64,000 nucleotides of DNA, taken from positions 4,886-68,885 of IMG/VR virus record IMGVR_UViG_3300032167_000057, one strand, 5' to 3'. Shown one piece after another: positions 1 to 45,267 of the stretch. The notes under the pieces are model-generated. The model saw nothing but the letters and a program-made list of their open reading frames with translations, was not told where the DNA came from and did no database searches. The stretch comes from a virus (taxonomy: Duplodnaviria > Heunggongvirae > Uroviricota > Caudoviricetes). Position 1 is the first letter of the stretch. Each line of letters starts with the position of its first letter. Both the position numbers and the translations under genes were made by a program.

Positions 1-6
1 AGTTAT

Positions 7-321
7 CTATTTTCTCGGTAATAAATGAAGCGTAAATGCGGCTGGTGCTTTGTAGTCAATAACATCTCCACTGTGAACAACTAATGGGATTAAGTCATGT
101 ATCCAGAAACTATTTTCACCAGTCTGTATTTTTTTAACTGAGTAACCGTTAATATTTACATAAAAAGATGTATTTGCCGACAAACTGGCATAAACTTTTA
201 ACATTCCAACAGTATTATCTGGCACAGTGTACGTTCCAGTTATTCCACCAGAAGCAATATTTTTTATTTCAATAAAGTTTTCAGTATCAAACATCATTAG
301 ATTCTGTAAACTTCTGTTCAT
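7..321 (-). CDS. hypothetical protein; the ORF stays open to the left edge of the window (5' part lies in this window)
   Basis: Minus-strand ORF that starts at 321 and has no stop before the window edge. No recognisable motif. Confidence 0.3.
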   Translation of the reverse strand: MNRSLQNLMMFDTENFIEIKNIASGGITGTYTVPDNTVGMLKVYASLSANTSFYVNINGYSVKKIQTGENSFWIHDLIPLVVHSGDVIDYKAPAAFTLHLLPRK

Positions 322-395
322 ATAAGTATGATGTTTTTGATGATAAAAGGTATATGTAAACTGCTAAATAATAAGTAAACATAAAGGAGAGCTTT

Positions 396-863
396 ATGAA
401 AAACAAATTAGAATTATTATTATTATTTTTAATAGGCTCTTCTGCCTATACATTTATAGAAATATTTTATAGAGGTTATTCCTTCCGTCTAATGGCCTTG
501 GCGGGAGGAATAATTTTTGTATGCGGCGGTCTACTTAATGACCGTTTTTCATGGAAGATGGATTTAACCCTACAGTGTTTTTTGATTAGTTTAATGACCA
601 CATGTATTGAAATGGTATTCGGTACATTGGATTATTACTACTTACATCTAAACATGTGGGACTATTCCACTCTTCCATTTAATTATTTTAATGGCAAGAT
701 ATGTCTACCGTTCTCAATTATTTGGTTCTTCTTTGGGTTTATAGTTGTATTTTGCCACGACGCTATATGTTATTACTGGTTACATAAAGGTTCACAACCA
801 CGATATTACATATGGGGTAATTTAATATGGAAAATGCCAAAACGTAAATGCACTGTTCTTTAG
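396..863 (+). CDS. small multi-pass membrane protein (holin-like candidate)
   Basis: 155 aa with about 4 hydrophobic segments, immediately upstream of the lysis genes on the same strand. Confidence 0.4.
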   Translation: MKNKLELLLLFLIGSSAYTFIEIFYRGYSFRLMALAGGIIFVCGGLLNDRFSWKMDLTLQCFLISLMTTCIEMVFGTLDYYYLHLNMWDYSTLPFNYFNGKICLPFSIIWFFFGFIVVFCHDAICYYWLHKGSQPRYYIWGNLIWKMPKRKCTVL

Positions 864-1336
864 GAGGTGAACTTATGTCTTGGATAAAGAAAATTTGGAA
901 CAAAATAAAGAATTGGTTTTGTCGTAAACAAGTTGCTTACGGTTCTACTCATTTTATCAGACCTGATGCTACGATTATTAATATTGATGATAAGACAGAT
1001 GTGTTGGACGTTGATTTAGTTGATGATAATCTTTCTGAAAAAGATAGAAAGAAAGTTAAGCAATATACAAAAAAATGGGTGGATATTATTCTTACTGTTT
1101 CATTGATTGATGTGCAATTTTGTTTTGTACTAGCTTTTCTTGGTAAAGACCAAATTGCTGAAACACTTGGTATTGCTATAATTACTGAGATTGTAGCTAT
1201 AGGTCTAGGCTATATGCTAAAGGCATTTTTTGAGACAAATGCCCAAAAGAAAAATGAAATAGAAATGGAACGTATTAAACGCACATATGCAGTAACAAAA
1301 CCAATTGTAGAATCGGATGAAGAATCCGTAGGATAA
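848..1336 (+). CDS. membrane protein
   Basis: 162 aa with central hydrophobic helices. Overlaps the previous ORF's end by a few nucleotides, which suggests translational coupling. Confidence 0.4.
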   Translation: MHCSLGGELMSWIKKIWNKIKNWFCRKQVAYGSTHFIRPDATIINIDDKTDVLDVDLVDDNLSEKDRKKVKQYTKKWVDIILTVSLIDVQFCFVLAFLGKDQIAETLGIAIITEIVAIGLGYMLKAFFETNAQKKNEIEMERIKRTYAVTKPIVESDEESVG

Positions 1337-1350
1337 AAAGGAGAAAAATT

Positions 1351-1680
1351 ATGAAAGAATTAATTAAAAAATACAAATCTGAATTACTTATCGCCCTTGG
1401 TGCTATCTCTAGTATTTTAGCGACACTTGCTACCAAAGAAGGTACAGATGCTGCTATTTTATCTGCCCTCATTGCTGTATTTGCAGTAATTATTGAGTTG
1501 GTGAAAAATGGTGTTTCAAAAGAAGCTGTAAACTTATTTACCAACTTTATCGTTATTTTGTTAGAAGAACTCGGTGGTGTGACTGTAGTAGATGATAAAG
1601 AAAAAGTGGCTTCTACTGCTGTGAGAGGTAAAGCAAAATCTATTTCTGTGGATGAAATTAAGGAAAGACTTTTAAAATAA
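1351..1680 (+). CDS. putative holin
   Basis: 109 aa with two hydrophobic helices and a charged C-terminus. Sits directly upstream of the peptidase and endolysin and is preceded by an RBS (aaaggaga). Confidence 0.4.
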   Translation: MKELIKKYKSELLIALGAISSILATLATKEGTDAAILSALIAVFAVIIELVKNGVSKEAVNLFTNFIVILLEELGGVTVVDDKEKVASTAVRGKAKSISVDEIKERLLK

Positions 1681-1691
1681 GAGGTGTCTTT

Positions 1692-2504
1692 ATGATTGAT
1701 TATAAAGAGAAATATGGTCAGCACTTAAAACTTTTGCAGTCTCCATATGACTCAAGAGATTATCGCTTTGGTGATGCAGTTCCTATGAGGGCATATGAAA
1801 TTCCAAAAGAATATTTTACACCAGATGCAGGATTTACATATGACCAAGAAAATAGTTCTCAGTGCTGCGCTTCGGCCTATAATTATATTAGATTTTTACA
1901 AGAAAAAGATAAAGAACAGTCTGAAATTACTGTTCCATTTTGTCCATCATTTACATATGCGAATCGTATTGATGGCGAAGATTTTGAAGGTATGTATTTA
2001 CGTTCATGTTGTAAAAAGGGGCGTGAAGGTTCTGTTGTTTGGGGAGAAATGAAATATCCTAACACTTATTTCGGTTCAAAGAATGAATTTTTATCTCGTA
2101 AAAAAGAATTACTTGAAAAAGCAGAACCATTTAAAATCAGTAGTTTTTATACTTGTAGAAATCGTAAAGAAATTCAAGTTGCGATTATGGAAACTAAGGC
2201 GGTTTTAATTGGTGTTCCTGTTTATGAATGTTTCTATACACCTGATGAAAACGGTATTATCCATTATGTAAAAGGTCAAGAAAATCAAGGTGGACACGCA
2301 ATCGTAATTGATGGCTGGTGTGAAATTGATGGTAAATTCTATTGGCGCATTAAGAACAGCTGGAATGCAAATTGGGGCAATCTTGGTGATGGTCATGCTT
2401 ATCTTCCATCTGAATACCCATTTATGGATGATGTGTATGTAATTTGCGATTATGTAATGGATATGAAATTTAAAGAATATAAAGAAAAATATTATGGAGA
2501 GTAG
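1692..2504 (+). CDS. papain-like (C1 family) cysteine peptidase
   Basis: Has an SQCCASAYNY motif (resembles the Q-x-C-G-S-C-W-A active-site Cys of papain), a GGHAIVIDGW His motif and an NSWNANWGNLGDGHAYLP (N-S-W) motif typical of papain-fold peptidases. Confidence 0.6.
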   Translation: MIDYKEKYGQHLKLLQSPYDSRDYRFGDAVPMRAYEIPKEYFTPDAGFTYDQENSSQCCASAYNYIRFLQEKDKEQSEITVPFCPSFTYANRIDGEDFEGMYLRSCCKKGREGSVVWGEMKYPNTYFGSKNEFLSRKKELLEKAEPFKISSFYTCRNRKEIQVAIMETKAVLIGVPVYECFYTPDENGIIHYVKGQENQGGHAIVIDGWCEIDGKFYWRIKNSWNANWGNLGDGHAYLPSEYPFMDDVYVICDYVMDMKFKEYKEKYYGE

Positions 2505-2548
2505 GTTAACCCCTACTCTCTTCTATTATTAAAAAAGGAGGAACAATT

Positions 2549-3997
2549 ATGTCAAAGATAGAAAAAGCGGTACAATTTATGGAGCAAATTGCTGCTGATA
2601 ATAGCCACGGCTATGCTCAAGATAATAGAAATGGCTCTCCTGATTATGATTGCTCTTCTCTTGTAGGTACAGCCTTGTCAAAAGCTGGATTTAAAGTAAA
2701 TCCTTTAAGCACAACAAGGACTTTATATAAACAGTTGATTGATTGTGGTTTTAAAGAAATTGGAGTTAATGAGGCTCGGAAGCGTGGGGATATTTTCTTA
2801 ACAGCAGGAAAACATGTAGTAATGTGTACGGATGCAAATAACATTGTACATGCTAGTTTGAATGAAAAAGGAACTATTAAGAACGGGCAAGTTGGTGACC
2901 AGACGGGAAAAGAGATTTGTTGCCGAAGTTTTTATACTCCAAGTTATAAATGGACTTACCATTTGAGATATGTAGAAAACACTCCTACCCCATCCACTAT
3001 TAAGGGCGTTGATGTTTCTGGTTATAATAAAATAACTGACTATCAAGCAGTTAAAAATGATGGTGTACAGTTTGCAATTCTAAAAATCATTCGTAAGGAT
3101 TTGAATTTAGATAAACTGTTTGAAACTCACTTGAAAGGTTTTAACAAAGTAAATTTACCTATCATTGGGGTTTATAATTATTCATACGCCACATCAGTTG
3201 CTAAATCACGGTCTGATGCTTCTATTGTGGTTAAATACTTAAAACAGTTTAATATGCCAAAATCTACAGTGATTTATATGGACGTTGAAGATAATTGTCA
3301 GAAAGGGTTGGGTCAGTTACTTATTGATATGATTAATGCTTATCAAGAAGTAATTGAAAAGGCTGGTTATAAATTCGGACTTTACACAGGGTTATCTTTC
3401 TGGAATTCGTATATTAAACCATATAAATCCAGTTTAAAGTGTAATGTAGAGTGGATTGCTAGATATAAAAAGGGATATTCACCTATGCAATTTGCAGAAA
3501 ATCCAGAAGAAAGCAGTAAACCGAATATTGGCACTCCAATTGAAGGGTATCAATACACAAGTTCAGGTCAAGTTTCTGGTATTCAAGGCTCTGTAGACTT
3601 AAATATTCTTTATAACACTTCCACTTTATCTTCCTCTCCAGTAATCAAAAATATTGTACGAGTGGATACAACTCTTAATGTTCGTAATAAACCTAATGGA
3701 GATATAAAGGGGAAACTCTACAATGGTGATGAAGTAGACATTTCAAATTATCAAGACGGATTTTACAGGATTGGTATAAACCAATGGGTATCTGCTACTT
3801 ATATTCAGTCAACACGAGGTATTGTGAATGCAAATATATTAAATATACGTAAAGGCGCAGGAACTAATTATGCAGATATAGGGAACATACCGAGGAATAC
3901 TATTATTCCTCTGTTAAAGGAGAAAAAAGGATGGTATTACACGGTATATGATTCAATAGGCGGTTGGGTGTCTGCTGAATATATACACGGACTATAA
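2549..3997 (+). CDS. multidomain endolysin: NlpC/P60 peptidase + GH25 muramidase + SH3 cell-wall-binding repeats
   Basis: The N-terminus reads GYAQDNRNGSPDYDCSSLV...GDIFL...HVVMC...IVHA (NlpC/P60 Cys-His-His). The middle reads GVDVSGYNKITDYQAVKNDGVQFAILKI (GH25 lysozyme signature). The C-terminus carries two SH3-like repeats (NVRNKPNGDIKGKLYNGDEV / NIRKGAGTNYADIGNIPRNT). Confidence 0.85.
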   Translation: MSKIEKAVQFMEQIAADNSHGYAQDNRNGSPDYDCSSLVGTALSKAGFKVNPLSTTRTLYKQLIDCGFKEIGVNEARKRGDIFLTAGKHVVMCTDANNIVHASLNEKGTIKNGQVGDQTGKEICCRSFYTPSYKWTYHLRYVENTPTPSTIKGVDVSGYNKITDYQAVKNDGVQFAILKIIRKDLNLDKLFETHLKGFNKVNLPIIGVYNYSYATSVAKSRSDASIVVKYLKQFNMPKSTVIYMDVEDNCQKGLGQLLIDMINAYQEVIEKAGYKFGLYTGLSFWNSYIKPYKSSLKCNVEWIARYKKGYSPMQFAENPEESSKPNIGTPIEGYQYTSSGQVSGIQGSVDLNILYNTSTLSSSPVIKNIVRVDTTLNVRNKPNGDIKGKLYNGDEVDISNYQDGFYRIGINQWVSATYIQSTRGIVNANILNIRKGAGTNYADIGNIPRNTIIPLLKEKKGWYYTVYDSIGGWVSAEYIHGL

Positions 3998-4032
3998 AGA
4001 AAGGCATAAGATATGAAATGGTAAATTATTAA

Positions 4033-4575
4033 ATGAACACAATGAATTTTATTAATACAGTTAAAGAATTTTTAGCTCAAGATTTTGGCAATATTATCTT
4101 GAGTATTTTTATTTTAATGGCTTTTTGTATTGCTGTGTATGAAATTATTGGTAAATTTTCTAAAATTATTAAAAAACCAGTGAAGTGGGTAAGTAAGAAA
4201 GATGAAGACCATGAGTTATTAATGCAGACAATCCAAGATTTAACTGCTTTACATAATAAACACGAAGAAGATACAAAACAATCAATTCGTCACGATGAAA
4301 TGATTCGTGACGATATTAAAGAATTAACATCCACTATACGTGAAGTGGTAGTACGTTTAAGTGACATGGAAGCTAAAATAGATGCCACCGAGATGGCCAA
4401 ATTAAAAGATAAAATCTTAGGTTATTATCGTAAATATAAAGACCTTGGAGAATGGGAACGTTTTGAAGCAGATACATTTTGGGGATTATATGATAGATAT
4501 ATTACACATGGGGGTAACTCGTTTGTAAAGCATGATATTGAACCCGTAATGCGTAATCTACAAATAAAAGACTAA
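4033..4575 (+). CDS. membrane-anchored coiled-coil protein
   Basis: 180 aa with an N-terminal transmembrane helix followed by a charged coiled-coil region. Confidence 0.4.
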   Translation: MNTMNFINTVKEFLAQDFGNIILSIFILMAFCIAVYEIIGKFSKIIKKPVKWVSKKDEDHELLMQTIQDLTALHNKHEEDTKQSIRHDEMIRDDIKELTSTIREVVVRLSDMEAKIDATEMAKLKDKILGYYRKYKDLGEWERFEADTFWGLYDRYITHGGNSFVKHDIEPVMRNLQIKD

Positions 4576-4576
4576 A

Positions 4577-4771
4577 ATGACTGATATAGAAATTAAAGAG
4601 TATATTCAAACACATCAAGGTGCGGTAAAAGCGCAAGATTATATTATGGAAATCAGAAATACAAGCCCACAAATCATTGAATCATTTTATGATTTGAACT
4701 CTGGAAAGGTAACATTATATACGCCTGATAATACTTTCATGTTCCAATTAATATTAAATAAAATTATGTAA
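4577..4771 (+). CDS. small hypothetical protein
   Basis: 64 aa ORF, co-oriented with the lysis cassette and abutting the previous gene. Confidence 0.3.
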   Translation: MTDIEIKEYIQTHQGAVKAQDYIMEIRNTSPQIIESFYDLNSGKVTLYTPDNTFMFQLILNKIM

Positions 4772-4774
4772 TTA

Positions 4775-4803
4775 GGGAGACTATATGTCTCCCTATTTTT
4801 TTA
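4775..4803. terminator. bidirectional rho-independent terminator
   Basis: GGGAGACTATATGTCTCCC hairpin followed by TATTTTTTT. It lies between the converging plus-strand lysis operon and the minus-strand Ku gene. Confidence 0.6.
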
Positions 4804-4813
4804 CGCAAACGGA

Positions 4814-5521
4814 TTATTGTTTTATCTTTTTTTGAATTAAATTACGCAATTTGGTTTGATATTTATCATAATGAGTTGACCAATCAAATTCATGTGTATA
4901 AGTGGAAATCAGGGTTTGTAAAGTTGCTAACTCATGTCTATGATGTTTGTGTGACGCAATCAATGGGAGTTCGTTGATTTCATTTTCGTAAAATAGAATT
5001 GTTGCTACAATACATCTTTTATTTGGAAATAAAGCAATTAATCTCTGTTGATTACCTAAAACCATTTCAGCTATGGCTATCACTTTATTCGCAATTAATG
5101 CCTTTCTAAATAAATCATATCTTTCTTCAGATTGCATATCAGGTACTAAATAATAAGATTTATAAATTAATAAATCTCCTATTTCTTTAGATTTGCAAAA
5201 ATAACTTACAGTTAATTGTTTATCCTGTTCGGTAGTAATTGAATCAATTTCAGTTTGTTCCAATACAACATATTTATCTTTCGCATATTGATAACCTTTT
5301 ACAATATCTTCGTTTGTAATTTCTTTCTTACATGAAGGACAATATTTATGGTATCTCACTCTTTCCTTAGAATCTTTACATAATTGATTTAATTCAATAC
5401 TATTATCACAGTTAACTTTCATCATTTTTACTGGGATTTGTAAAGTTTGAAACCGTATAGTGGTTATATAAGAAGCGTTCATTTCATTATCTCCTTTGCA
5501 CGATTTGCATTTAGTATGCAT
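4814..5521 (-). CDS. Ku-like DNA end-binding protein (bacterial Ku/YkoV family, short form)
   Basis: SIELNQLCKDSKERVRYHKYCPSCKKEITNEDIVKGYQYAKDKYVVLEQTEID matches the bacterial Ku core (IRFHQ...R.RY.RVC..CG.EV...DI.KGYE...yV.ltd.ei). The N-terminal IRFQTLQIPVKMMKV resembles the Ku FGLVNIPVKLY beta-strand. Confidence 0.55.
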   Translation of the reverse strand: MHTKCKSCKGDNEMNASYITTIRFQTLQIPVKMMKVNCDNSIELNQLCKDSKERVRYHKYCPSCKKEITNEDIVKGYQYAKDKYVVLEQTEIDSITTEQDKQLTVSYFCKSKEIGDLLIYKSYYLVPDMQSEERYDLFRKALIANKVIAIAEMVLGNQQRLIALFPNKRCIVATILFYENEINELPLIASHKHHRHELATLQTLISTYTHEFDWSTHYDKYQTKLRNLIQKKIKQ

Positions 5522-6251
5522 ATAAATCGAGTCGAATATGCAGAAGTTTACAAAACATTACTTCTTTAAATTCAACAGAACAAAAAATCGGTACATTCTT
5601 AGGAAAACCATTATATGAAATAGTTTTGACTGGTACTTCCACAGGAAGTGGGTCAAATGAAGAACACAATGATGTATCGGCGTTAAATATTGAAAATGTA
5701 ATATCAATTGCGGGAACAATTATAAAAACGGCAGCAAGTGGTACGGTAGCAAATCCACTTCCAAGTTATTTTGATGAGGAGAATCTTTGTGTTCCGTATA
5801 TTTCATTTGCAAGATACAAACTTATGATGAAATCTAAAATGTCTGGTGAATTTATTGTTGTTTTAAGATATACAAAAACAACAGACTGATAAACTGTCGA
5901 AATTAAACAATAATTATTTATCGGTAATAAATTGCAATAAATGTTCTATAACCAGTATCATCACCTTTAGTTGTTTGTCTTGCTTCTACCAGACCAGTAT
6001 CGAAGTGTATTTTTGCTTGTGATTCAGCAAAATATCTCGAGTCATTTTGTGTACTCATAGTAAAAATTGAAGCGCTAGCAGAAGTTCCATTATTAAATAA
6101 TAAATGATGATAATTACTCATATTTACATATGCTTCTTTACAATTAATTAATTCAGGGTAAGTTCCTATGCTAACCCAATTTGTACTAACTGTTGTAAAT
6201 TTGTAGTTAATATCAATCGTTTTCCACTCTGAAAGTGCCGTTAAACTTCTG

Positions 6252-6297
6252 CTTAGTAATAAAAATAACGCCTACAATTACATAATCATAGGCGTTA
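6252..6297 (-). terminator. rho-independent terminator for minus-strand gene 6316-7023
   Basis: Inverted repeat TAACGCCTA...TAGGCGTTA. On the minus strand it is followed by TTTTTATT. Confidence 0.5.
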
Positions 6298-6315
6298 AAA
6301 GTATGCTTTTATCCA

Positions 6316-7023
6316 TTAAAAATCGAGGACGATATAATTTACCTTTTTAGGATTTACGACGATTTCATGCTCATTACGCGCGTTTAAATAGCATAATATA
6401 GCATCTTTTTGTACTTTACCCTTTAATATAATTGGTGTGCCCATTTGATATCTTTCAGCAAACCATTTGGCTGTATTATAGTTTGTTGTCCAAGAGAAAC
6501 CATTTTTATATTTAGGGTCACGAACTCCTCTATAAATAGTTACTTCTTCATCCAAGTTTTCTAAGAACCGTAATTCGTCTTCGTCCATTAAATATTCTTT
6601 TTTGGCTTTTTTAAACCATCCTAATAATTCACGACGAGTAACATTTGTTTCATCACAAATCACTTCCATTTGTACATATAGCTCTGACAGCAATTCACCA
6701 AAATCTTTTTCAGATAAATAGTCATGAATATATTTAAAGAAAGTAAGTTTATATGGAGTTGTAATGAACATGGCGAGACTGAATACATCAGGTCTACTTT
6801 TGATTACTTGCTCCATTTCTTTTTTATATTCATAAAAAGAATTTTCATCTTCAAACAGATTAAACATTTGTCCATTATTTGCGCTAAATAAGGCAGAAGT
6901 TGTAAAGAATGGATGTGACACAAATAAATCACCAAATGAACCAACTGGTACTGGGTCTACGTGCAACATACCAATTGCTATGTGTTGTATTTCTTTCATT
7001 TTAGTTTCTTTGATGCGAGCCAT
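6316..7023 (-). CDS. hypothetical protein; possible ADP-ribosyltransferase-like fold (weak)
   Basis: 235 aa. The C-terminal half has IYRGVRDPKY (Arg), FSWTTNYN (S-x-T-T) and ARNEHEIVV (E-x-E) in an order reminiscent of the R-S-E ART triad. This was read by eye and not verified. Confidence 0.45.
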   Translation of the reverse strand: MARIKETKMKEIQHIAIGMLHVDPVPVGSFGDLFVSHPFFTTSALFSANNGQMFNLFEDENSFYEYKKEMEQVIKSRPDVFSLAMFITTPYKLTFFKYIHDYLSEKDFGELLSELYVQMEVICDETNVTRRELLGWFKKAKKEYLMDEDELRFLENLDEEVTIYRGVRDPKYKNGFSWTTNYNTAKWFAERYQMGTPIILKGKVQKDAILCYLNARNEHEIVVNPKKVNYIVLDF

Positions 7024-7025
7024 TA

Positions 7026-7178
7026 TTTACCCTCCACTTTTGTCACATCTATATCCATTACATCACCTGTTGTGATATTTGAGGCAAACCATTTACGGGC
7101 CACATCTAACAGTTGTCCATCTTCCAGTTCACAAGTCACTATATTCTCTTCTATTCTAATTATTGTGAGTTTCATACT
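7026..7178 (-). CDS. small hypothetical protein (50 aa)
   Basis: Minus-strand ORF MKLTIIRIEENIVTCELEDGQLLDVARKWFASNITTGDVMDIDVTKVEGK, tightly coupled between the integrase and the 6316-7023 gene. Confidence 0.3.
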
Positions 7179-8574
7179 ATTCCTCGCTTTTGTAATATTC
7201 ATTATATATGTCTATATTGTTAATTATAATATCATTAATTGCAAGAGTTTTATTTATAGGAAGCTTAACAAGTTTTCCATTTTCAATATAGCCAAGCATT
7301 CCTTCTTCTATCTCTATTAGTGAAATACCCATTTTGCTCAATGATTCTACTACTCCTATAGGAGTAGTATTTACTTGCTTTTGAACATTGTTAAATAATT
7401 TGATAGCAGATGCTTTTTGAGCATTAATAATATGAACATATATATTTAACGTAATTTCTATACTAGAGTGTCCTAATAACTCACTGACAGTCTTAATATC
7501 AACGCCTTTAAGTATCAAATAAGAACCAAATGTGTGTCTTAAAGAATGTAATCCACTTTTCTTTATCTTGCAATTTGCATTCTTTTGCATAAGGTTTAAA
7601 GTGCGTGTAACATTACTATGATTGCTAATTGTAACCCCATCCTCAGTGAAAACATAATAATTAGGGTCTTGGTTTTTCCATAAACCTTTAAGAATTAATA
7701 AAGCAATGTCTGATAATGGAATGCTGCGCTCGCTAGAATATGTTTTAGTACCATCTGTATCTACATAAATATGTTTGGGTTTATCACCCTTTGGATTTCT
7801 TATTTTTGCAATAACGTGCGTTATTGTAATGATGTTTAGGTCTAAATTAACATCCTTCCATTTAAGTGCAAGAGCCTCAGATATACGCAAACCAGTATAC
7901 ATGATAAATATAACCATATGAGCATTTAGTCCATATTTGTTTCTACCAGTACTATGCATTTTTTGAAACTCATCATAGAGTTTTAACATATCTGATTCTT
8001 CTAAGAATGGTACTTTACGCCTTTTGGTTTTTACGTTCTTTTCAGAAGGAATGATGATGTCTTCCATATAATTACATGGAGCATACTTATCTGTTTCATA
8101 CATATACTCGCAAATCTGATTTAATAACGATTGCGTTCTTTTAATTGTACCTCTCGAATATTCTTTTTGCTTTACACAATAATCATCTATATAATCTTGG
8201 AAAATATCTTCGCTTAATGAAGCAATTTGAGTATTACCCAGAAATGTATCTTTAATTCGATTGTCTAACATATCTGCATACGAATCAATAGTTACTTGTT
8301 TTGTATCTGAACCATCATTAGGTTTTATATCTTCTATCCAATGCTTGCAATAATGATAGAATGTTTCCTGCTTAACATTCTTAGCATCGAATTTATGCTT
8401 ATCCTTATTTACTAATTCAAACTGTTCTCTCTTTTGATTAATTTCTTTTTCTGTTTTACCATAGAATGTGTGATAATCATCTTTCCAATCATAATACTTT
8501 CTATAGTATTTATATTGAACACCATTAATTGTACGAGTACCCCAATTACCTTCTCCGTTTTTTCTTTTAGCCAT
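7177..8574 (-). CDS. int: tyrosine integrase (phage integrase family)
   Basis: Catalytic signatures LRISEALALKWKDV (box I Arg) and HSLRHTFGSYLILKGVDIKTVSELLGHSSIEITLNIYVH (box II with the H-x-x-R...Y region). It sits next to the attP-like repeats and a tRNA. Confidence 0.9.
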   Translation of the reverse strand: MAKRKNGEGNWGTRTINGVQYKYYRKYYDWKDDYHTFYGKTEKEINQKREQFELVNKDKHKFDAKNVKQETFYHYCKHWIEDIKPNDGSDTKQVTIDSYADMLDNRIKDTFLGNTQIASLSEDIFQDYIDDYCVKQKEYSRGTIKRTQSLLNQICEYMYETDKYAPCNYMEDIIIPSEKNVKTKRRKVPFLEESDMLKLYDEFQKMHSTGRNKYGLNAHMVIFIMYTGLRISEALALKWKDVNLDLNIITITHVIAKIRNPKGDKPKHIYVDTDGTKTYSSERSIPLSDIALLILKGLWKNQDPNYYVFTEDGVTISNHSNVTRTLNLMQKNANCKIKKSGLHSLRHTFGSYLILKGVDIKTVSELLGHSSIEITLNIYVHIINAQKASAIKLFNNVQKQVNTTPIGVVESLSKMGISLIEIEEGMLGYIENGKLVKLPINKTLAINDIIINNIDIYNEYYKSEE

Positions 8575-8636
8575 AAGAATCCCTCCTTATTTGTGCTTTA
8601 TATAAGGATAACATATGGCAAAAAATTACTCAACAA

Positions 8637-8889
8637 TTTTACACAGATTTTCCATAATTTTACACAGATTAGGATACCTAAGAATACCTATAAATACCTA
8701 AAAATACATAATTGAGAAAAATATAAAAAGCCCCGAAAACGCCGAAAACACGGCACTTTCGAGACTTTTTGATAAGATATTAAAAAATTGTCTTACGCAT
8801 TGGTAGTGCTATTGTTATATTTTTGAAACGCCTATAAACACTGGCTTTGAAGCCTCTTTCAAAAAATTTACACAGATTTTTACACAGAC
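8637..8889 (+). repeat. attP-like region: four direct repeats of TTTACACAGA(T/C) and three ATACCTA repeats at 10-bp spacing
   Basis: TTTACACAGATT occurs at 8637, 8658 and 8867; TTTACACAGAC occurs at 8879. (A/G)(A/G)ATACCTA occurs at 8674, 8684 and 8694, i.e. with helical phasing. The region lies between int and tRNA-Thr, and xis is on the far side. Confidence 0.6.
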
Positions 8890-8903
8890 TAGAAACTTAA
8901 TAT

Positions 8904-8976
8904 GCTGATGTGGCACAGTCGGTAGCGCACTTCATTGGTAGTGAAGAGGTCACGGGTTCGATTCCCGTCATCAGCT
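8904..8976 (+). tRNA. tRNA-Thr (anticodon GGU)
   Basis: Acceptor stem GCTGATG/CATCAGC, T-arm ACGGGTTCGATTCCCGT, anticodon stem CTTCA/TGAAG with loop TTGGTAG. 73 nt including discriminator T. Confidence 0.8.
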
Positions 8977-8982
8977 TTAAAA

Positions 8983-9012
8983 ATAGGGAAGATATGCAAT
9001 CTTCCCTAAATT
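8983..9012. terminator. bidirectional hairpin terminator
   Basis: AGGGAAGAT-ATGCA-ATCTTCCCT hairpin flanked by T/A-rich tracts. It sits after the tRNA on the plus strand and after xis on the minus strand. Confidence 0.5.
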
Positions 9013-9227
9013 ATTATCTTCGTATTCATTTTAGCATTTTTACTTATCCAATCTATTAAATCATCTTCTGGGATATAATAATCTCTTCCAATCTTAAATT
9101 GAGGAAACCCCTTCGTATTTAATAATTTATATAGTGTTTTATCAGAAGCAATACCTAAATATTCTTTTACTTCCTTACTCTTTAATATGCGTTGTATATC
9201 TATCACACTCCTATTTATAAAACACAT
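9006..9227 (-). CDS. xis: excisionase / HTH DNA-binding protein
   Basis: 73 aa. KEVKEYLGIASDKTLYKLLNTKGFPQFKIGRDYYIPEDDLIDWI is the Xis/MerR-type HTH_17 fold. It is adjacent to attP and int. Confidence 0.6.
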   Translation of the reverse strand: MCFINRSVIDIQRILKSKEVKEYLGIASDKTLYKLLNTKGFPQFKIGRDYYIPEDDLIDWISKNAKMNTKIII

Positions 9228-9921
9228 GTCCTATATCATCTTTAAACACAAATGTTCTATTACGTTTAGCCCAACTATTTAAACCAGTATCAAACCATAA
9301 AGCACCATCAGTAGTATCTTCAAATAAAAAAGCATATTCAATTGCTAACACTGTAGAATAATCGATTTCAGTACGATGATAAGCAAACTGATTCTTACGA
9401 GTGATAACTTTACTCAAAGAGCCATTAATATCCGAAAATTCTGTATTAGCAACTCTATTTAATATAACATTGGCCACATTAACTTTAGAATCAAAATCGC
9501 CGTCATGTGTTTCTGTCTCTACCGCTCTTTGGAATAACTCAATCTCTTCATCTGTATATTCATCATAGACAGAATGAAACGGCATAACATACTCATCATA
9601 GTCTCGATATGCTTTTTTATATGCTAAAATATATGCTTGTCTATCATATTCTTTAATTGATTCTAGTGATGTAATTAACTCATTAAACTCTTGAATTTTT
9701 TTCTGTGCTTGAACTTGTTTAAGCTCCTGTAAAGTCGGTAACTGTTCTACTGTTCGTGTTTGCACTATCGGATAAGTAGAAATATGCGGTAAAATATCTA
9801 CAGGAGTAAATACAAAACGTAAAATTAATTGTATCCAGAACACCTGAAGAAGAATAATATTCAATATTTTATACATTTTTTCATTTAATTGAAGTGTTGG
9901 TAAATATCTACTTATGCTCAT
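9211..9921 (-). CDS. SleB-like cell-wall hydrolase (Hydrolase_2 family) with N-terminal TM anchor
   Basis: N-terminal hydrophobic helix. C-terminal VNVANVILNRVANTEFSDINGSLSKVITRKNQFAY matches the SleB/CwlJ core (vA.vvlNRv....fp.ti..Vv...gQF). Confidence 0.6.
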   Translation of the reverse strand: MSISRYLPTLQLNEKMYKILNIILLQVFWIQLILRFVFTPVDILPHISTYPIVQTRTVEQLPTLQELKQVQAQKKIQEFNELITSLESIKEYDRQAYILAYKKAYRDYDEYVMPFHSVYDEYTDEEIELFQRAVETETHDGDFDSKVNVANVILNRVANTEFSDINGSLSKVITRKNQFAYHRTEIDYSTVLAIEYAFLFEDTTDGALWFDTGLNSWAKRNRTFVFKDDIGHVFYK

Positions 9922-9945
9922 TCAGGCCTCCTTTGATACATAAAT

Positions 9946-10284
9946 TTACTCTTTTTTTATTTGAAAACTACGTATGATTATATGGTCGGGTAGTGGAGTC
10001 GCATCAAATTCTGAATATGCCCATCCCTCATCACCCCAATATAGAGTGCCATATGATATATCTTGTGTATTAATGTTTAAATACGTAATATCATAATATC
10101 CCGCTTCTGTTGGTATATAGGGTGCATACCATCTATCAGATTCTGGTTGGGGTTCATAATTATCATTGTCACCTTTATAACCTATCATCATGCGACAATT
10201 CGCACATTTTGGACTTAAATAATCGGTTTTTGTGTAATAACCACATGAAACACATGTACCACTTTCATTTGTTCCTTTACTCAT
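9946..10284 (-). CDS. hypothetical protein with N-terminal zinc-ribbon
   Basis: CVSCGYY...CANC motif; 112 aa. Confidence 0.4.
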   Translation of the reverse strand: MSKGTNESGTCVSCGYYTKTDYLSPKCANCRMMIGYKGDNDNYEPQPESDRWYAPYIPTEAGYYDITYLNINTQDISYGTLYWGDEGWAYSEFDATPLPDHIIIRSFQIKKE

Positions 10285-10286
10285 AG

Positions 10287-10832
10287 TTACCTCTCCTTAT
10301 CAATAATTCGTACCAGACGTTCTACTCCTTCTTCTAAAGTGCCATGATTTAAAATCCTGTACCAAATCAAGTTACTTTTTTCAAATTCGGTAAATTGCTG
10401 GTTTTCTGATTCATAGCGTTGTAAGTAAGAATCAATATTATCTTTTCTTTTTTTAGCCCGTTCAATTCCTTTAGTTTTACTTACTGTGATATAAATAGGT
10501 ATTAATTCAATATCTAATTCTTTTGTTTTCTCACTAAGTTCGTAATAACCATTAGGGTCAATAATGTAGATATCGCACTCCATTAATTGAGAGTATGTAC
10601 AAAAATATTGATAACCATTAATAACGGTGTATGCCATAATATCATCTCGATATTTATCTACTTCATCTTCGGTAATAAAAATATGGTCTGTTTCACCGTC
10701 CAGTTCGGCTGGTCTAGGAGGTCGTGTGGTATAAGAAGTAAGAATGGTTAAACCTAACTGTTTAGCTGCTTCTTTTGACAAGGTGGACTTCCCACTACTG
10801 CTTCTTCCCATTACACAAAATATTTTTTTCAT
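10287..10832 (-). CDS. guanylate kinase-like P-loop nucleotide kinase
   Basis: Walker A GRSSSGKSTL, and TTRPPRPAELDGETDHIFITEDE, which matches the guanylate kinase motif (TTRxPRxGEvdGxdYxFv). Confidence 0.7.
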   Translation of the reverse strand: MKKIFCVMGRSSSGKSTLSKEAAKQLGLTILTSYTTRPPRPAELDGETDHIFITEDEVDKYRDDIMAYTVINGYQYFCTYSQLMECDIYIIDPNGYYELSEKTKELDIELIPIYITVSKTKGIERAKKRKDNIDSYLQRYESENQQFTEFEKSNLIWYRILNHGTLEEGVERLVRIIDKER

Positions 10833-10833
10833 C

Positions 10834-11082
10834 TTATTTCTCCTTATAGAAAAATGGCTGTAACTGTGAGTTAAATCTTTCTAATACTGTCTCATCGTCA
10901 GAATCTAATGTTACTTCTACTGGCTCTTTACCACCTAATAAAATAACACCTAAAATTGATTTAGCATCAAAAGTTTTACCATTACGAGTAATAAAAGCTT
11001 TTTCTGCAAAAGAAGTAATAATATTAGCAAATTCCTGAATATCAGAAATTTTGTTTAAATATAAAGTAACTGTATTTTTCAT
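10834..11082 (-). CDS. HPr-like phosphocarrier-fold protein lacking the catalytic His15
   Basis: NGKTFDAKSILGVILLGGKEPVEV aligns to HPr NGKTVNLKSIMGVMSLG..GAEI, so the Ser46 region is conserved. The His15 region (GIHARPA) is replaced by ISDIQEFA, so there is no His. Confidence 0.65.
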   Translation of the reverse strand: MKNTVTLYLNKISDIQEFANIITSFAEKAFITRNGKTFDAKSILGVILLGGKEPVEVTLDSDDETVLERFNSQLQPFFYKEK

Positions 11083-11209
11083 AATTTGTTCTCCTCTCTC
11101 AACATAGTTTAGTAGTTCATTCGACTACATTATACAATTTTATTTCTATGTTGTGCAATATTTTTTTGTAGTTGCTTCAATTTTATTTTGCACTTAGTTA
11201 AATTTAGAA

Positions 11210-11755
11210 TTATTTTATCTTGTAACAATTCCAAATAACGGGTAATAATACCGTATCGCGTGCATGTAGCCAAGGTTTAGTTGTATCGCCAAAAGCGCCA
11301 TGTTCAGTTATCTGTACAAAATCGCCATGAACAATCTCAATCTTATAATCATTTATATTGTTATAAAAATCTTCTGGAATTTTTGTGCGGTCATGAGTTT
11401 GACCAAATAAGATATTATTCAGAACTTTAGAATAAAGATAAATAACAAATGTTGCTGTACCATCATGTGTAATGCGTTCAGAAGTTACATACTCAAAATC
11501 TGCATCGGGGTCATATTTGAGATGAATATTATAATTGGTAAGATGAAGCAGTTCTCCTACTTCATTCATCATTTCTCCTTCAGGTACTGTAACAATTATC
11601 TCATGAGTATCTTGATACCTTGTAATCACTTTGTTCGGTAAAAAATTCTGTGCCATTTCAAAAAAGGGTAATGAATGTATATTATAATCATCAGTCAATT
11701 GATAAGTATAATTGGGAGAATGTATTCGTTGTTGTACAAATCTTAATGAATTCAT
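11210..11755 (-). CDS. hypothetical protein
   Basis: 181 aa minus-strand ORF in the tightly packed operon; no motif recognised. Confidence 0.4.
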   Translation of the reverse strand: MNSLRFVQQRIHSPNYTYQLTDDYNIHSLPFFEMAQNFLPNKVITRYQDTHEIIVTVPEGEMMNEVGELLHLTNYNIHLKYDPDADFEYVTSERITHDGTATFVIYLYSKVLNNILFGQTHDRTKIPEDFYNNINDYKIEIVHGDFVQITEHGAFGDTTKPWLHARDTVLLPVIWNCYKIK

Positions 11756-11934
11756 CTAATTTCCTCCTCTTTATCAGGTATTTGGATTGACAATCGTGCA
11801 ATTTCTTTAATTGCTTGTAAATATGGACAATGTTCTAATTCTATCTCACTAGCGTTACAATAGCCTAATGAAGCTTTGCGGCAATATCTATGATATGCCA
11901 TATTACATTTACTAGGTGTCATCTGTACCTCCAA
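11752..11934 (-). CDS. small Cys-rich protein
   Basis: 60 aa with Cys/His spaced in a zinc-binding-like pattern; its stop overlaps the next gene's start. Confidence 0.3.
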   Translation of the reverse strand: MEVQMTPSKCNMAYHRYCRKASLGYCNASEIELEHCPYLQAIKEIARLSIQIPDKEEEIR

Positions 11935-11943
11935 GGCAATATA

Positions 11944-12741
11944 TTAATTAATTCTACTAATCTGTTCATATAGAAGAATATCTTTATCGTTTACAACATA
12001 ATTAATATGCATATGTCCACATAGGTGTTTATTAAACTCTGTCTTTTGTCGCACTTCCTCTAAATATGTAGTTAATATATCTTGGTTATATAAACCATGA
12101 CCCAATAGTGCAATTACACTAGCAGAAGGGCTATGTGTAATAATATAATCAACCTTATAATTATGTTTTCTTAAATTATTCCACCCATTCTGCATTTCTT
12201 CTTCTGAAGGAAGTTCGTGCTCCCACCAAGACAATCCTTTAATTTGATACATATATTTACCTTGCTTATCTAATGCCTTTGCTTTATCTCTCCAATCTTC
12301 ATCTTCATAATCAAGAATACCGTCTGAAATATCGTGAGAACTTGCACCGCCAAAAGCAAAGAATTTTTTATCTTCTATTGTAAATATTTCCCCTCTTCTT
12401 AATCGTAAAACGTGAGGACGTAGTTCATTAACCAATCCCCCATTCCATTCTTTAATTGGGAATGTGTCTAAACGAGGGATATTGTCATGATTACCATCTA
12501 CAAAAATAGTGGTAAACGGTTTTTCTTCTAACCAATCTAACAAATATTTTTCCTGTCTGGTTTCTTCTCTGTGCCATATAATTCCAAAATCACCAAGAAT
12601 AATGACTACATTTTCATCTTTATTGCCGCTAAACCCCTTTTGTTCATAAAAATTATCTGTACTAAATCTAACGGGGTTACCATGTATATCTCCCGTTACC
12701 CAAATAGACATAATAATCACCTCTTTTCTGTGTATAGACAT
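11944..12741 (-). CDS. calcineurin-like metallophosphoesterase (Ser/Thr phosphatase family)
   Basis: Motifs VTGDIHGN, GDFGIIW (GDxxDRG-like) and GNHDN. Confidence 0.75.
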   Translation of the reverse strand: MSIHRKEVIIMSIWVTGDIHGNPVRFSTDNFYEQKGFSGNKDENVVIILGDFGIIWHREETRQEKYLLDWLEEKPFTTIFVDGNHDNIPRLDTFPIKEWNGGLVNELRPHVLRLRRGEIFTIEDKKFFAFGGASSHDISDGILDYEDEDWRDKAKALDKQGKYMYQIKGLSWWEHELPSEEEMQNGWNNLRKHNYKVDYIITHSPSASVIALLGHGLYNQDILTTYLEEVRQKTEFNKHLCGHMHINYVVNDKDILLYEQISRIN

Positions 12742-15705: not shown

Positions 15706-16077
15706 CTAGTACATATAACAGAGCCATGTTCCCACTATCTGTAGCAGATGTAGACTTTGGTCTGTAACTAAATTTATTTTCTTCTGATTTGCCTTTAAAT
15801 CATCTATAAACATATGCGCTATGACATTTACAATAAAAAGTGATATGCTCCAGTTTCCGCCATATAAGATTAAATACAAGGTAGGAAGTAATGTAATACT
15901 AAATGCCCAACTAAAACTATGCATGAATAATGCCATTATGTAATCGTGCTTATATAAAGGTTTTGTATTCTCCCACCACTCTTTTTGTTTCATAGCCGCT
16001 AAACAACCTTGTAAGTAATAATCATCAACTATATGACAGAAAATCATACCTATCAAAAATAGAATCTTATAATCCAT
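15706..16077 (-). CDS. membrane protein with His/Asp motifs
   Basis: 123 aa with about 3 TM helices. Conserved-looking HIVDDYY and HMFIDD motifs. Confidence 0.4.
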   Translation of the reverse strand: MDYKILFLIGMIFCHIVDDYYLQGCLAAMKQKEWWENTKPLYKHDYIMALFMHSFSWAFSITLLPTLYLILYGGNWSISLFIVNVIAHMFIDDLKANQKKINLVTDQSLHLLQIVGTWLCYMY

Positions 16078-16474
16078 ATTTCTTGTTAATCCTCTTTATT
16101 ATTTGTCAATTCCTTAATTAAATTAGTTGGGTCGTACTTGGAATTATAAACAACCTTTCCTTTATCATTTGTTACAACATAAAAATCTTCATATTCTGTT
16201 CTACCCCAACAATCATAACCATCTGCTCTTCTTTCTATTGTTACTTTTACTCCCACAAAAATCACCTCAATTCAAAATCAAGTTCTGTTTTTATTTAGAA
16301 GAACTAAACGCCAATATATTCTGGCAGTATCTCTAATATCTTATTTATTTCTTCTAATATTGCTTCATCAACTTCTTCTCTTTTTATATCGTTATTATCT
16401 TCAATATTAATTTTTAAGGGTGGTGGTGTAATCATATTTTTACCTCCATTTTCCCAACCAAAGTGTTATTTTAT

Positions 16475-17263
16475 TTACTCAAATACCGATTTAAAAGCTT
16501 CTAAATTACCATCTCTACCACTTGGAATTGCGAATACAACTTTTCTAAAACAATTCTTATACGTTGTTTCTAAACACTCCTTAAAAATCATTGCGACTTC
16601 TACAGGATTCTGTCCGAACACACCACAACCATATGCCCCTAAGATAAGTACTTCCACTTCATTATCCTTTGCAATATCAAGTACAAATTTAATTCTTGAT
16701 TTTAAAACTTTTGTATTCTCTGTATCAGAAACATTCTGATACTTTTGCGCCGCTGATTTGTTGGGAGCTGCACATGTAATTACGTCACGATAGATTTCAG
16801 ACCCATCATATTGAAATACAATATTCGGGGTATATAAACCACGATTCAAATATAACGCTTTGTTCTTATGCTGATTATTCCAATCATAAAAATCTTTAAC
16901 AAACTGAGATAGAACATTATATAAGTAAGAATCATGACACAAACATTCTTCCTGCGCTTTACTACCATTAAGAAACATACCACCAGGATTCTTGTATGAT
17001 GAAAAATTTAGTAATGCAGTTTTACCATCTGAGTATTTACCGGATGCCATAACCGTATCCGCATCTGCAACTATGATTTTTGTAGGTTCTTCTAATTCGT
17101 TTACAATATCTCCGTTACATATAAAATCAGTATCATAAATTTTAGTATTCTTGATGGATTGTGTAATTTTATCTCCGTGTAATTTCTGCATTTCAGTAGT
17201 ATGTTTTCTTGCTCTCTGTGCTCTTTGGTCTTTGTTTTCCCAATATTCTTTTATATATGCCAT
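16475..17263 (-). CDS. bacterial-type poly(ADP-ribose) glycohydrolase-like macrodomain protein (DUF2263/TIGR02452-like)
   Basis: NPGGMFLNGSKAQEE matches the PARG signature GGG-x(6-8)-QEE. LILGAYGCGVFGQNP is the macrodomain diphosphate-binding loop. Confidence 0.6.
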   Translation of the reverse strand: MAYIKEYWENKDQRAQRARKHTTEMQKLHGDKITQSIKNTKIYDTDFICNGDIVNELEEPTKIIVADADTVMASGKYSDGKTALLNFSSYKNPGGMFLNGSKAQEECLCHDSYLYNVLSQFVKDFYDWNNQHKNKALYLNRGLYTPNIVFQYDGSEIYRDVITCAAPNKSAAQKYQNVSDTENTKVLKSRIKFVLDIAKDNEVEVLILGAYGCGVFGQNPVEVAMIFKECLETTYKNCFRKVVFAIPSGRDGNLEAFKSVFE

Positions 17264-21675: not shown

Positions 21676-22524
21676 CTAACTGCTTTCGCAGTTTGGACTA
21701 TATCTTCATCTATTATTCTATTACCAAATAATAGATGCTCGGCACTTCCACATAAGGACTTTCACCTTATATGTACTCTACTCGCTTCTTCGCATAAGTT
21801 TTTCTCTTATGCTATGCTTTCGATAGTCTCTTGACTTTCTTCAACGTATTCAAATAAATAATCATAATTATTAGTTAATTTTTCATCTTTTAATATCATG
21901 GTTACTGTCTTTCTATTAATATGTAAATCTTCACACATACTTCTTATAGATTTATAAGTTTTAAAATATTTACCATTTTTCTTATAATAGACGTTTATCG
22001 CATGACATCTTGACTTATATTTATATAATTTGTTATCATAACCATGTTGGGTGTTATCACTATTTGTACACCACTCTAAGTTATCTATATTATTATTTAA
22101 CTTATTTCCATCTTTATGATTGACTTGTGGTAGATTATTTGGATTAGGAATAAACGTATTGGCGACCAACCTATGTACACGTTTATAACATTTCTTACCA
22201 TTTGAATCTCTTAAAACACATTGGTAATACCCAACGGTATCTATCCACTGACCAATTTCTTTGTTTCGTTTAGTATCATAAATCACACCGTTAATGTTGA
22301 TTCGATATCTCTCAAAACCTTGAATTTCTTTATTTATAATTATTGTTTCTATATAAAATTCACCTTCTTTAAAAGTGAATACGTTGAATATTAGCACAGG
22401 ATTATCATAATAATGACTTCCCCTGTTAGCCAATTCATTAGCCATCATTTCCTATGGTTACTATTCGTTGAATTGACACCTTATATATATAAGTTCACCG
22501 AGTTTTACATGAGCTATCATATTA
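21676..22524 (-). mobile_element. group I self-splicing intron in nrdD carrying an HNH homing endonuclease ORF
   Basis: Exon 1 ends ...SPMG (GGU) at 22525 and exon 2 starts CRAF at 21675; a direct join recreates the conserved NrdD SPMGCRSF junction. The S element AAGATATAGTC lies about 20 nt upstream of the terminal G (UAG) on the minus strand, and the 849-nt insert contains the HNH ORF. Confidence 0.8.
21807..22448 (-). CDS. HNH homing endonuclease (intron-encoded)
   Basis: NHKDGNKLNNNIDNLEWCT is an HNH motif. The N-terminal DNA-binding region is typical of phage HNH homing endonucleases. The ORF sits inside the nrdD intron. Confidence 0.8.
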   Translation of the reverse strand: MMANELANRGSHYYDNPVLIFNVFTFKEGEFYIETIIINKEIQGFERYRININGVIYDTKRNKEIGQWIDTVGYYQCVLRDSNGKKCYKRVHRLVANTFIPNPNNLPQVNHKDGNKLNNNIDNLEWCTNSDNTQHGYDNKLYKYKSRCHAINVYYKKNGKYFKTYKSIRSMCEDLHINRKTVTMILKDEKLTNNYDYLFEYVEESQETIESIA

Positions 22525-45200: not shown

Positions 45201-45267
45201 AAAACTCCTCCCTTCTTTAGTTTTCTTGCTTCAAGTCTACCTATTAGTTGTTATTGTAGCATATTTT

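Follow-up and report, generated by a model that had tools for sequence, protein, structure and literature searches.

What use could a temperate phage have for a Ku protein that comes without a ligase? This question is raised by the open reading frame (ORF) at 4814-5521 on the minus strand of a 64,000-nucleotide stretch of viral DNA (IMG/VR record IMGVR_UViG_3300032167_000057, positions 4,886 to 68,885), which was analysed at its full length and is referred to here as the window. The comparisons described below make it almost certain that the ORF encodes a functional bacterial-type Ku of a ~130-140 kb SPbeta-like temperate phage of gut Clostridia. Most likely, the gene would serve as a stand-alone lysogenic-conversion gene, its product capping or holding DNA ends in sporulating lysogens. 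Identity and spore use taken together form the best overall explanation, to which we give an even chance of being correct.

Identity and core-only architecture of the phage Ku

An earlier reading of the window (the original prediction) had called the ORF a Ku homologue, quoting the peptide RVRYHKYCPSCKKEITNEDIVKGYQYAKDKYVVL, and had named a search for the Ku domain as the way to check this. The ORF is present, includes the quoted peptide and is 235 amino acids (aa) long. It matched the Pfam Ku family PF02735 with E=3.5e-36 and 125 bits (gathering cut-off 25) and the NCBIfam equivalog TIGR02772 (Ku_bact) with E=2.9e-57 and 194 bits (curated cut-off 150). PHROG 4873, annotated as 'Ku-like DNA end binding', was matched with E=1.6e-29. 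Solved Ku structures agreed with these profiles: the B. subtilis Ku core (9vnq) aligned over residues 7-220 of the ORF against 7-225 of the structure (E=9.5e-29), and the M. tuberculosis Ku structures 8v53 and 9i91 aligned end to end (E ~2e-21). The H/C-x12-CxxC positions typical of bacterial Ku are kept. A Pfam scan at E<=0.1 returned, besides Ku, two sub-threshold chance matches and no Gam. The Ku call is thus borne out by domain, family and structure matches alike, and the lack of any Ku-fold hit, named in advance as grounds for giving it up, is not what was found.

The extent of the gene, on the other hand, required revision. Although the 235-aa ORF exists, its true product is probably the 222-aa protein that starts at 5482. 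The gene and the signals around it are as follows.

4814-5482, minus strand: Ku gene, 222 aa, core-only (Pfam, PHROG, NCBIfam and PDB matches; family length; ratio of non-synonymous to synonymous substitutions, dN/dS)
5491-5496, minus strand: ribosome-binding site AAGGAG, read from the sequence, 8 nt before the ATG at 5482
5512-5541, minus strand: predicted forespore (sigma-F/sigma-G type) promoter GCATA-N18-CATACTA(A), with its -35 box at 5541-5537 and its -10 box at 5518-5512
4773-4795, plus strand: hairpin terminator between the lysis operon (ending at 4771) and Ku (ending at 4814), with its T-run on the plus strand
6266-6297, minus strand: intrinsic terminator ending the integrase operon and separating Ku as a transcription unit of its own

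Several observations make the ATG at 5482 the most likely start, giving a gene at 4814-5482 on the minus strand. Nearly all of the ~120 homologues listed are 222-224 aa long, and on at least 24 public contigs that carry the identical sequence, gene callers give 222 aa. The motif GGAG (5494-5491) lies 8 nt ahead of this ATG, and AAGGAG or AGGAG is kept at the equivalent place in all relatives. Finally, the predicted -10 box (5518-5512) falls within the 13 extra codons of the 235-aa ORF. The in-frame upstream ATG at 5521 is therefore probably not used. Consistent with this, an exact-sequence look-up of the 235-aa ORF gave no match, because public gene calls take the 222-aa start. An AlphaFold2 model of the monomer, built on a shallow alignment of 29 close homologues, reached a pLDDT of 43 and a pTM of 0.32 and was set aside; Ku is an intertwined dimer.

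The phage Ku ends where the bacterial Ku core ends. Its alignment to TIGR02772 breaks off at position 227 of the 259-position profile, and its last residue corresponds to residue 225-227 of B. subtilis Ku (bsKu), at which the core construct of 227 residues examined by cryo-electron microscopy (cryo-EM; PMC12784961) also ends. All family members terminate in ...KLRxLIxxKIPK. Beyond this end point, 119/129 full-length Ku representatives continue for at least 15 residues, the middle of the sorted distribution being at ~44. The remaining 10, with 8 residues or fewer, include the phage Ku itself (tail of zero); besides the members of two phage lineages they comprise two or three further core-only proteins and some likely fragments. 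All 689 prokaryotic Ku proteins analysed previously have a C-terminal region 19-173 residues long, whose minimal part is conserved and which usually also has a basic tail (PMC4889933). The phage Ku has neither the minimal region nor the basic extended C-terminus, the latter being frequent but not universal in bacterial Ku. A missing exon would find no room either: the hairpin terminating the converging lysis operon lies no more than 20 nt beyond the stop at 4814. We conclude that, as far as its sequence tells, the phage Ku is a natural 'core-only' Ku devoid of both the minimal C-terminal region and the basic tail.

The protein also departs from bacterial Ku in the loop joining strands beta1 and beta2. 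In bsKu this loop reads GLVNIP, and its residues L30 and N32 are essential for oligomerisation, which underlies the Ku-Ku filament and synapsis (PMC12784961). The GLVN(I/V)P filament and synapsis loop is not found in the phage Ku: it is replaced by QTLQIP in the window and by x(D/N)LYIP or NNKLIH in relatives. The position equivalent to L30 is occupied by L or M in 115/128 representatives and by T, N or D in the phage clade, and that equivalent to G29 by G, S or A in 122/128 representatives and by Q, N, K or S in the phage clade.

Compared with B. subtilis YkoV and other Firmicutes Ku proteins (TIGR02772/PF02735; 9vnq, 8v53, 9i91), the phage Ku therefore has the same core domain over its whole length but differs in the minimal C-terminal region, the basic tail and GLVN(I/V)P. 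It differs further in being phage-borne, in having no adjacent ligD and in sharing only ~35-40% identity with the nearest tailed Ku. The consequences can be anticipated from work on the bacterial proteins. The bsKu core retains DNA binding and threading but neither binds nor stimulates LigD (PMC4889933), and the C-terminal region mediates or strengthens LigD recruitment in both B. subtilis and M. tuberculosis Ku (PMC4889933, PMC9638933). However, the M. tuberculosis core alone still binds LigD's ligase and polymerase domains (PMC9638933), so that loss of the tail would lower cooperation with LigD without excluding it. By homology to these two proteins, the phage Ku would form a homodimeric ring and thread onto the ends of double-stranded DNA. 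It is expected to bind and to cap or hold ends while being poor at canonical LigD recruitment and at Ku-mediated bridging. Such a protein would be the natural counterpart of the engineered 'Ku core' of biochemistry and cryo-EM, with which the activities left to Ku in the absence of LigD arm and filament interface could be tested.

The original prediction had remarked that Ku stands alone, with no LigD nearby, and this observation now extends across the 64 kb. No ligase and no AEP (LigD-type) polymerase was detected among all ORFs of at least 230 aa in the window, which is part of a ~130-140 kb genome; every such ORF was searched with Pfam, and those left unmatched also against PHROGs or PDB. 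Likewise, no ligase was found in the flanks (10 kb on either side) of Ku relatives where Pfam calls were shown. The adjacent LigD that would mark a two-component non-homologous end joining (NHEJ) system is thus missing within 64 kb. Two ORFs were considered individually. The 385-aa ORF at 35668-36825 was ruled out as an AEP: PHROG 47 marks it as a primase, and its only PDB matches were faint and DnaG-like. The 309-aa ORF at 40136-41065 gave no match.

A conserved island in mosaic flanks

The window represents one arm of a large temperate phage with a GC content of ~32%. Its PolIII alpha is 37.5% identical to YorL of SPbeta, and Ku-carrying relatives have the SPbeta-specific YonB, YonD and YonG families. 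By these markers the phage is a large SPbeta-like temperate phage, in line with the earlier view that this Ku is phage-borne. Several metagenome samples associated with humans contain the region in identical copies, the contigs reaching 131-139 kb.

A search of 5.8 billion proteins with Ku gave 509 matches, the best 120 of which comprise a single protein 96% identical to it, followed by a closely knit family with 64-70% identity. When 1.8 billion cluster representatives were searched with HMMER, the family representative scored 329 bits and the first tailed Ku at most 167 bits; between them, at 199 bits, lay P0122, which represents a second core-only Ku lineage (225 aa, 46% identity). The nearest tailed Ku proteins are ~35-40% identical to the phage Ku. 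Family members were located on 52 IMG/VR viral contigs, many of them 100-196 kb long, and in a prophage of Coprococcus ammoniilyticus (Lachnospiraceae). A prophage boundary close to Ku in the Coprococcus genome was considered and ruled out, identity to viral contigs being 99% across 10 kb on either side. Among 50,697 GenBank phage records, tblastn found 87 matches, of which 86 were to Mycobacterium phages at 23-24% identity, and megablast of positions 3500-9500 against GenBank phages found none.

The median dN/dS of Ku was 0.10 over 371 pairs, and by this measure the gene is under strong purifying selection across many phages. Its surroundings behave differently. Ku DNA was conserved in 57/63 loci and its flanks in only 3-8, and no other gene of the window was shared with the 10-kb flanks of Ku relatives in other lineages. 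Ku is therefore a strongly conserved island in mosaic flanks. Its position is nevertheless kept: in the relatives examined it lies between the late operon and the tyrosine integrase, and a P0122-type Ku occupies the same junction in another lineage (YonG late operon, Ku, integrase). In relatives the neighbouring genes are encoded on the minus strand and only Ku on the plus strand. In the main ~150-kb relatives (L003, L005, L012, L013, L017, L022, L024 and L025; ~9500-12100) it sits inside a minus-strand array of phage tRNA genes where, on either side and at most a few hundred bases away, there are tRNAs for Trp, Ser, Pro, Glu, His, Asp, Gln, Cys and others.

Phage-encoded Ku as such is already known (PHROG 4873; Corndog and Omega), and eleven Ku-carrying phages have been counted in RefSeq (PMC8136500). 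A literature search found no paper describing the present clade. What is new is its host range (SPbeta-like phages of Clostridia), its tail-less architecture with an altered filament loop, its conservation as a core gene amid mosaic surroundings, and the predicted forespore-type promoter. Phage Ku, until now an oddity of two mycobacteriophage clusters, appears here as a conserved core gene of abundant, uncultured 100-200 kb phages of human-gut Clostridia.

A predicted forespore-type promoter and the possible uses of Ku

When and for what would such a phage make Ku? The layout of signals indicates that Ku is transcribed as a unit by itself between two terminators, of which the hairpin at 4773-4795 would be the one that ends its transcript. 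No sigma-70-like site was listed upstream of the gene. The element found there reads GCATA-N18-CATACTAA at 5541-5511. When the sequences ahead of Ku at 59 loci, 23 of them distinct, were aligned, one -10-like element emerged, CATACTA(A/T), which the window lineage shares with the main group and with the diverged P0122 lineage; it is placed 12-17 nt before the ribosome-binding site, with CATATACTA, CACACTA and CATGCTA as variants. The B. subtilis sigma-G consensus, GMATR-17/18-CATnnTA, served as a lead only. A degenerate sigma-G pattern occurred 7 times in 128 kb (both strands) against 2.6 +- 1.5 expected, and the exact string GCATA-N18-CATACTA occurred once in the same 128 kb, ahead of Ku.

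For a more quantitative comparison, a two-box position weight matrix (PWM) was trained on the 55 SigF/SigG promoters that have been mapped in C. difficile (PMC7438776, Table S5). With this matrix, which derives from C. difficile and not from the phage's host, the window Ku promoter scored 12.3 bits against a training median of 12.8. Ku upstream regions scored 8.5-15.1 bits, reaching at least 12.3 bits in 45/59 loci and always 22-30 nt before the ATG. At that threshold the background of the window was 0.125 matches per kb per strand, and only 1/56 control upstream regions attained it, their median being 4.0. In 405 kb from ten diverse relatives, 5/16 matches of at least 14 bits were the Ku promoter. 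A sigma-E matrix (47 SigE promoters) scored below the sigma-F/G matrix in all but one locus, and a sigma-E promoter for Ku was set aside as the poorer fit. The predicted element combines the features of a forespore promoter, namely a -35 box of the form G(T/A/C)ATA, a spacer of ~15-18 and a -10 box of the form CAnAnTA(A), just upstream of the gene.

The forespore-type promoter points to expression of Ku in sporulating lysogens, a possibility that the original prediction had not raised and whose chances we put slightly short of even. Two precedents exist for spore-linked DNA protection of this kind. In B. subtilis, ykoV-ykoU belong to the sigma-G/SpoVT forespore regulon, and mutant spores are sensitive to double-strand breaks (PMC3656841, PMC4889933); the phage Ku, with its predicted forespore-type promoter, resembles the sigma-G controlled ykoUV in this respect (PMC3656841). 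SPbeta, a phage of the same kind as that of the window, carries sspC, a sigma-G-dependent gene for the protection of spore DNA (PMC8270828). The proposed logic, a prophage gene in the forespore regulon that protects spore DNA, is the same in both phages, but sspC encodes one of the small acid-soluble spore proteins (SASPs), a family unrelated to Ku, and no SASP gene was found in the window or the loci searched.

Modelled on host ykoV-ykoU and SPbeta sspC, spore protection would proceed as follows. In a sporulating lysogen, the prophage would make Ku in the forespore from its own sigma-F/sigma-G type promoter. The dimeric ring, by homology, would load on double-stranded DNA ends and would protect or hold double-strand breaks in the single, non-replicating spore chromosome, prophage included, until germination. 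Sealing of the breaks would be left to whatever host ligase is available. Lysogenic conversion is the most likely use because Ku forms its own transcription unit and the only promoter-like element conserved ahead of it is of the forespore type. The spore-protection role itself we propose tentatively, at somewhat less than even chances.

Several points weigh against it. The promoter is a prediction from sequence, made with a matrix from C. difficile, a member of another family of Clostridia. AT-rich DNA yields many near matches, and the window copy taken alone ranks in the top ~2% of upstream regions. The -35 box of most relatives has no conserved G, reading TAATA or ACATA. A spore-specific companion gene was not found by a SASP motif search of the window and all loci. 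Lastly, spore repair normally needs a ligase partner, and the missing C-terminal region argues against efficient use of LigD.

In its fullest form, the proposal is that an SPbeta-like clade of gut phages took over a ku that was under sporulation control in a host, along with the forespore promoter, and trimmed the gene to a tail-less, non-bridging, LigD-independent end cap that preserves the spore chromosome. We regard this sequence of events as possible but doubtful. If it is true, it would provide a second and mechanistically different phage-encoded protection of spore DNA after sspC, and a natural Ku that works without recruiting a dedicated NHEJ ligase. If the forespore promoter is real, carriage of the prophage would be tied to spore survival in gut anaerobes, with a bearing on the transmission of spore-forming commensals, and the sspC precedent of SPbeta would extend from Bacillus to Clostridia.

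Three side observations touch on sporulation. The nearest tailed Ku, P0124 (266 aa, 40% identity; L064 250-311, on a contig of 41% GC), is itself preceded by GTATA-N17-CAATCTA, which scores 13.2 bits and lies just before the ribosome-binding site; the phage Ku may have been captured together with sporulation control. Within the window, only one other upstream region reaches the score of the Ku promoter, at 16096-16105 on the minus strand (12.5 bits), 19 nt before a 123-aa ORF at 15706-16077. A Hydrolase_2 (SleB/CwlJ-type) gene at 9211-9921, minus strand, adjoins the Xis-like gene; its family includes spore-cortex lytic enzymes, and it could be another link to sporulation or germination.

The main rival to spore protection is one of the two uses put forward in the original prediction, a Gam-like protection of ends during infection. 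Ku would then act in the lytic cycle, capping injected, terminally redundant DNA and the tails of rolling circles or concatemers, and would block exonucleases of the AddAB/RecBCD type and the generation of CRISPR spacers from free ends, with no ligation involved. The Gam protein of phage Mu is well known to protect DNA ends, and a protein that only caps ends would need no more than a core-only Ku, which has neither LigD arm nor bridging tail. Mu Gam is moreover a minimal Ku relative that acts as an end protector (cited in PMC8136500). The two proteins are functionally analogous, both being minimal end binders of the Ku fold from temperate phages and lacking the tails of bacterial Ku, but the window Ku does not belong with Gam at the sequence level: it has the full bacterial Ku core of ~220 aa and no Pfam Gam match. 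The phage encodes replication and recombination functions of its own (PolIII alpha, DnaB, primase, a RecD2-like helicase, a PD-(D/E)XK nuclease and an AAA_24 ATPase), and SPbeta-type relatives package by headful, so that free ends are exposed (PMC8270828). Strong purifying selection on Ku across many phages would also fit such a function, and the conserved element might be read by an RNA polymerase or sigma factor of the phage whose -10 preference is similar. Set against this, no sigma-70-type early promoter was listed upstream, the conserved promoter-like element is of the forespore type, and Ku in the relatives stands by itself, antisense to the tRNA array around it, and does not belong to an early operon. 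On balance, we judge Gam-like protection unlikely. Were it correct, this Ku would be a candidate anti-AddAB tool for Gram-positive genetics.

A second alternative, the other use put forward originally, is that injected DNA is circularised by a host ligase that Ku brings to its ends: either LigD or, as has been reported for Mu Gam, LigA. This role of phage Ku is established in mycobacteriophages Corndog and Omega (PMC4351075, citing Pitcher 2006), whose Ku proteins (Corndog gp87, Omega gp206) resemble that of the window in standing alone, without a phage ligase, and in belonging to the same PHROG 4873. Support also comes from the ability of the M. tuberculosis core to bind LigD domains by itself (PMC9638933) and from the acquisition of NHEJ by some Lachnospiraceae (PMC7719229). 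However, the mycobacteriophage proteins are only 23% identical to the window Ku and are longer, with 282-284 aa (282 in Omega gp206, 284 in Ashwin gp88) against 222 aa without a tail. Omega gp206 and Ashwin gp88 keep GLV(N/T)VP and 'DVSxLLAKLEAS' followed by a further C-terminal region, lysine/arginine-rich in Ashwin. The window Ku has lost the bridging and filament motif as well as the minimal C-terminal region and tail, which in B. subtilis are required for binding and stimulating LigD (PMC4889933). Mycobacteriophage Ku depends on LigD and serves phages with 4-nt cohesive ends (PMC4351075), whereas the window Ku belongs to SPbeta-like phages of Clostridia and has a sporulation-type promoter, a type unsuited to an immediate-early need. 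SPbeta-like genomes are terminally redundant, packaged by headful and recircularised by recombination without end joining (PMC8270828), a description that concerns Bacillus relatives and not the window phage's own ends. Together with the lack of a ligase in 64 kb, these differences make recruitment of a host ligase improbable.

Least probable is a role in prophage exclusion or defence, in which Ku of a lysogen would bind the ends of incoming foreign phage DNA and block its circularisation or replication, or channel it into error-prone joining: a stand-alone, moron-like gene adjoining the integrase and a variable cassette does occupy a typical site of prophage defence cargo, and host NHEJ has been reported to restrict a mycobacteriophage (PMC12848934), but neither Ku nor its neighbours gave a PADLOC match, Ku is conserved as a core gene across diverged phages while defence cargo usually varies, no vegetative promoter was listed, and Ku would also bind the ends of the phage's own induced DNA.

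Integration module and remainder of the window

Between Ku and the presumed end of the prophage lie the following features.

5550-6255, no strand assigned: variable cassette upstream of Ku, with two orphan ORFs at 5626-5889 (plus strand, 87 aa) and 5918-6121 (minus strand, 67 aa)
6316-8574, minus strand: integrase operon, with the tyrosine integrase at 7177-8574, a DUF3006 protein at 7023-7202 and a 235-aa protein at 6316-7023 (PHROG 4776)
8619-9227, no strand assigned: probable attP region, with four TTTACACAGA repeats (8619-8888), tRNA-Thr(GGT) at 8904-8976 (plus strand) and an HTH_17/Xis-like gene at 9006-9227 (minus strand)

The stretch at 5522-6315 had been described as decayed and without a convincing ORF. 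This description is not supported: both orphan ORFs are called as genes, 100% identical, on 17 public contigs. No other homologues of either were found when their stop-to-stop frames were searched among 5.8 billion proteins, and neither had a Pfam, PHROG or PADLOC match. The 67-aa ORF lies in a 117-codon open frame with no earlier canonical start. An Rfam scan of 4500-9300 detected nothing but tRNA. Homology to the 96%-identical relative L001 stops at 5549, and different ORFs follow beyond this point, which identifies the stretch as a replaceable, variable cassette. It is bracketed by a 14-nt inverted repeat, TATGCAGAAGTTTA at 5537-5550 and TAAACTTCTGCTTA at 6242-6255, of a size expected by chance here. 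One arm of the repeat overlaps the predicted -35 box of Ku, and only the position of the repeat is suggestive of cassette exchange.

The placement of Ku at the edge of an integration module, as first proposed, was supported. Ku lies 1.7 kb from the tyrosine integrase. The four TTTACACAGA repeats sit between the start of the integrase gene and tRNA-Thr, and three independent public contigs of the same phage end within this tRNA, at 8924, 8925 and 8948. Together with the Xis-like gene, the repeats and contig ends indicate that attP is probably at or beside tRNA-Thr, the repeats being putative arm-type integrase sites. With attP at this tRNA, Ku would be ~3.4 kb from one end of the prophage. The 235-aa protein of the integrase operon (6316-7023, minus strand) is of separate interest: its C-terminal half reads like an R-S-E ADP-ribosyltransferase (IYRGV ... 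FSWTT ... NEHEIVV), with no Pfam or PDB match. The same phage has a microbial-type PARG at 16475-17263, and the two proteins are a possible writer and eraser pair for ADP-ribosylation.

On the other side of Ku, positions 1-4771 of the plus strand hold the end of the late operon with its lysis genes. From 4814 to 64000, nearly all genes are on the minus strand.

396-4771, plus strand: end of the late operon with the lysis module, converging on Ku; C1 peptidase at 1692-2504 and endolysin at 2549-3997
Minus strand, integration and recombination genes: tyrosine integrase, Xis-like HTH_17 protein and two further tyrosine recombinases
Minus strand, replication genes: PolIII alpha, DnaB, primase, RecD2-like helicase, PD-(D/E)XK nuclease and AAA_24 ATPase
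Minus strand, nucleotide metabolism: NrdD, split by an HNH endonuclease
Minus strand, other genes: PARG and three tRNAs

Two of these genes are interrupted. NrdD (20716-23727, minus strand) is present as two ORFs divided by an HNH homing-endonuclease ORF at 21807-22448, and PolIII alpha (27258-31421, minus strand) is likewise in two ORFs, at 28932-31421 and 27258-28646. These splits are reminiscent of the intron- and intein-ridden nrd genes of SPbeta. The two further tyrosine recombinases are adjacent, at 44268-46305 on the minus strand, and one of them has an N-terminal domain of the MrpR type, associated with multimer resolution. The pair may be a hint that the phage genome passes through a plasmid-like or multimer-resolving stage.

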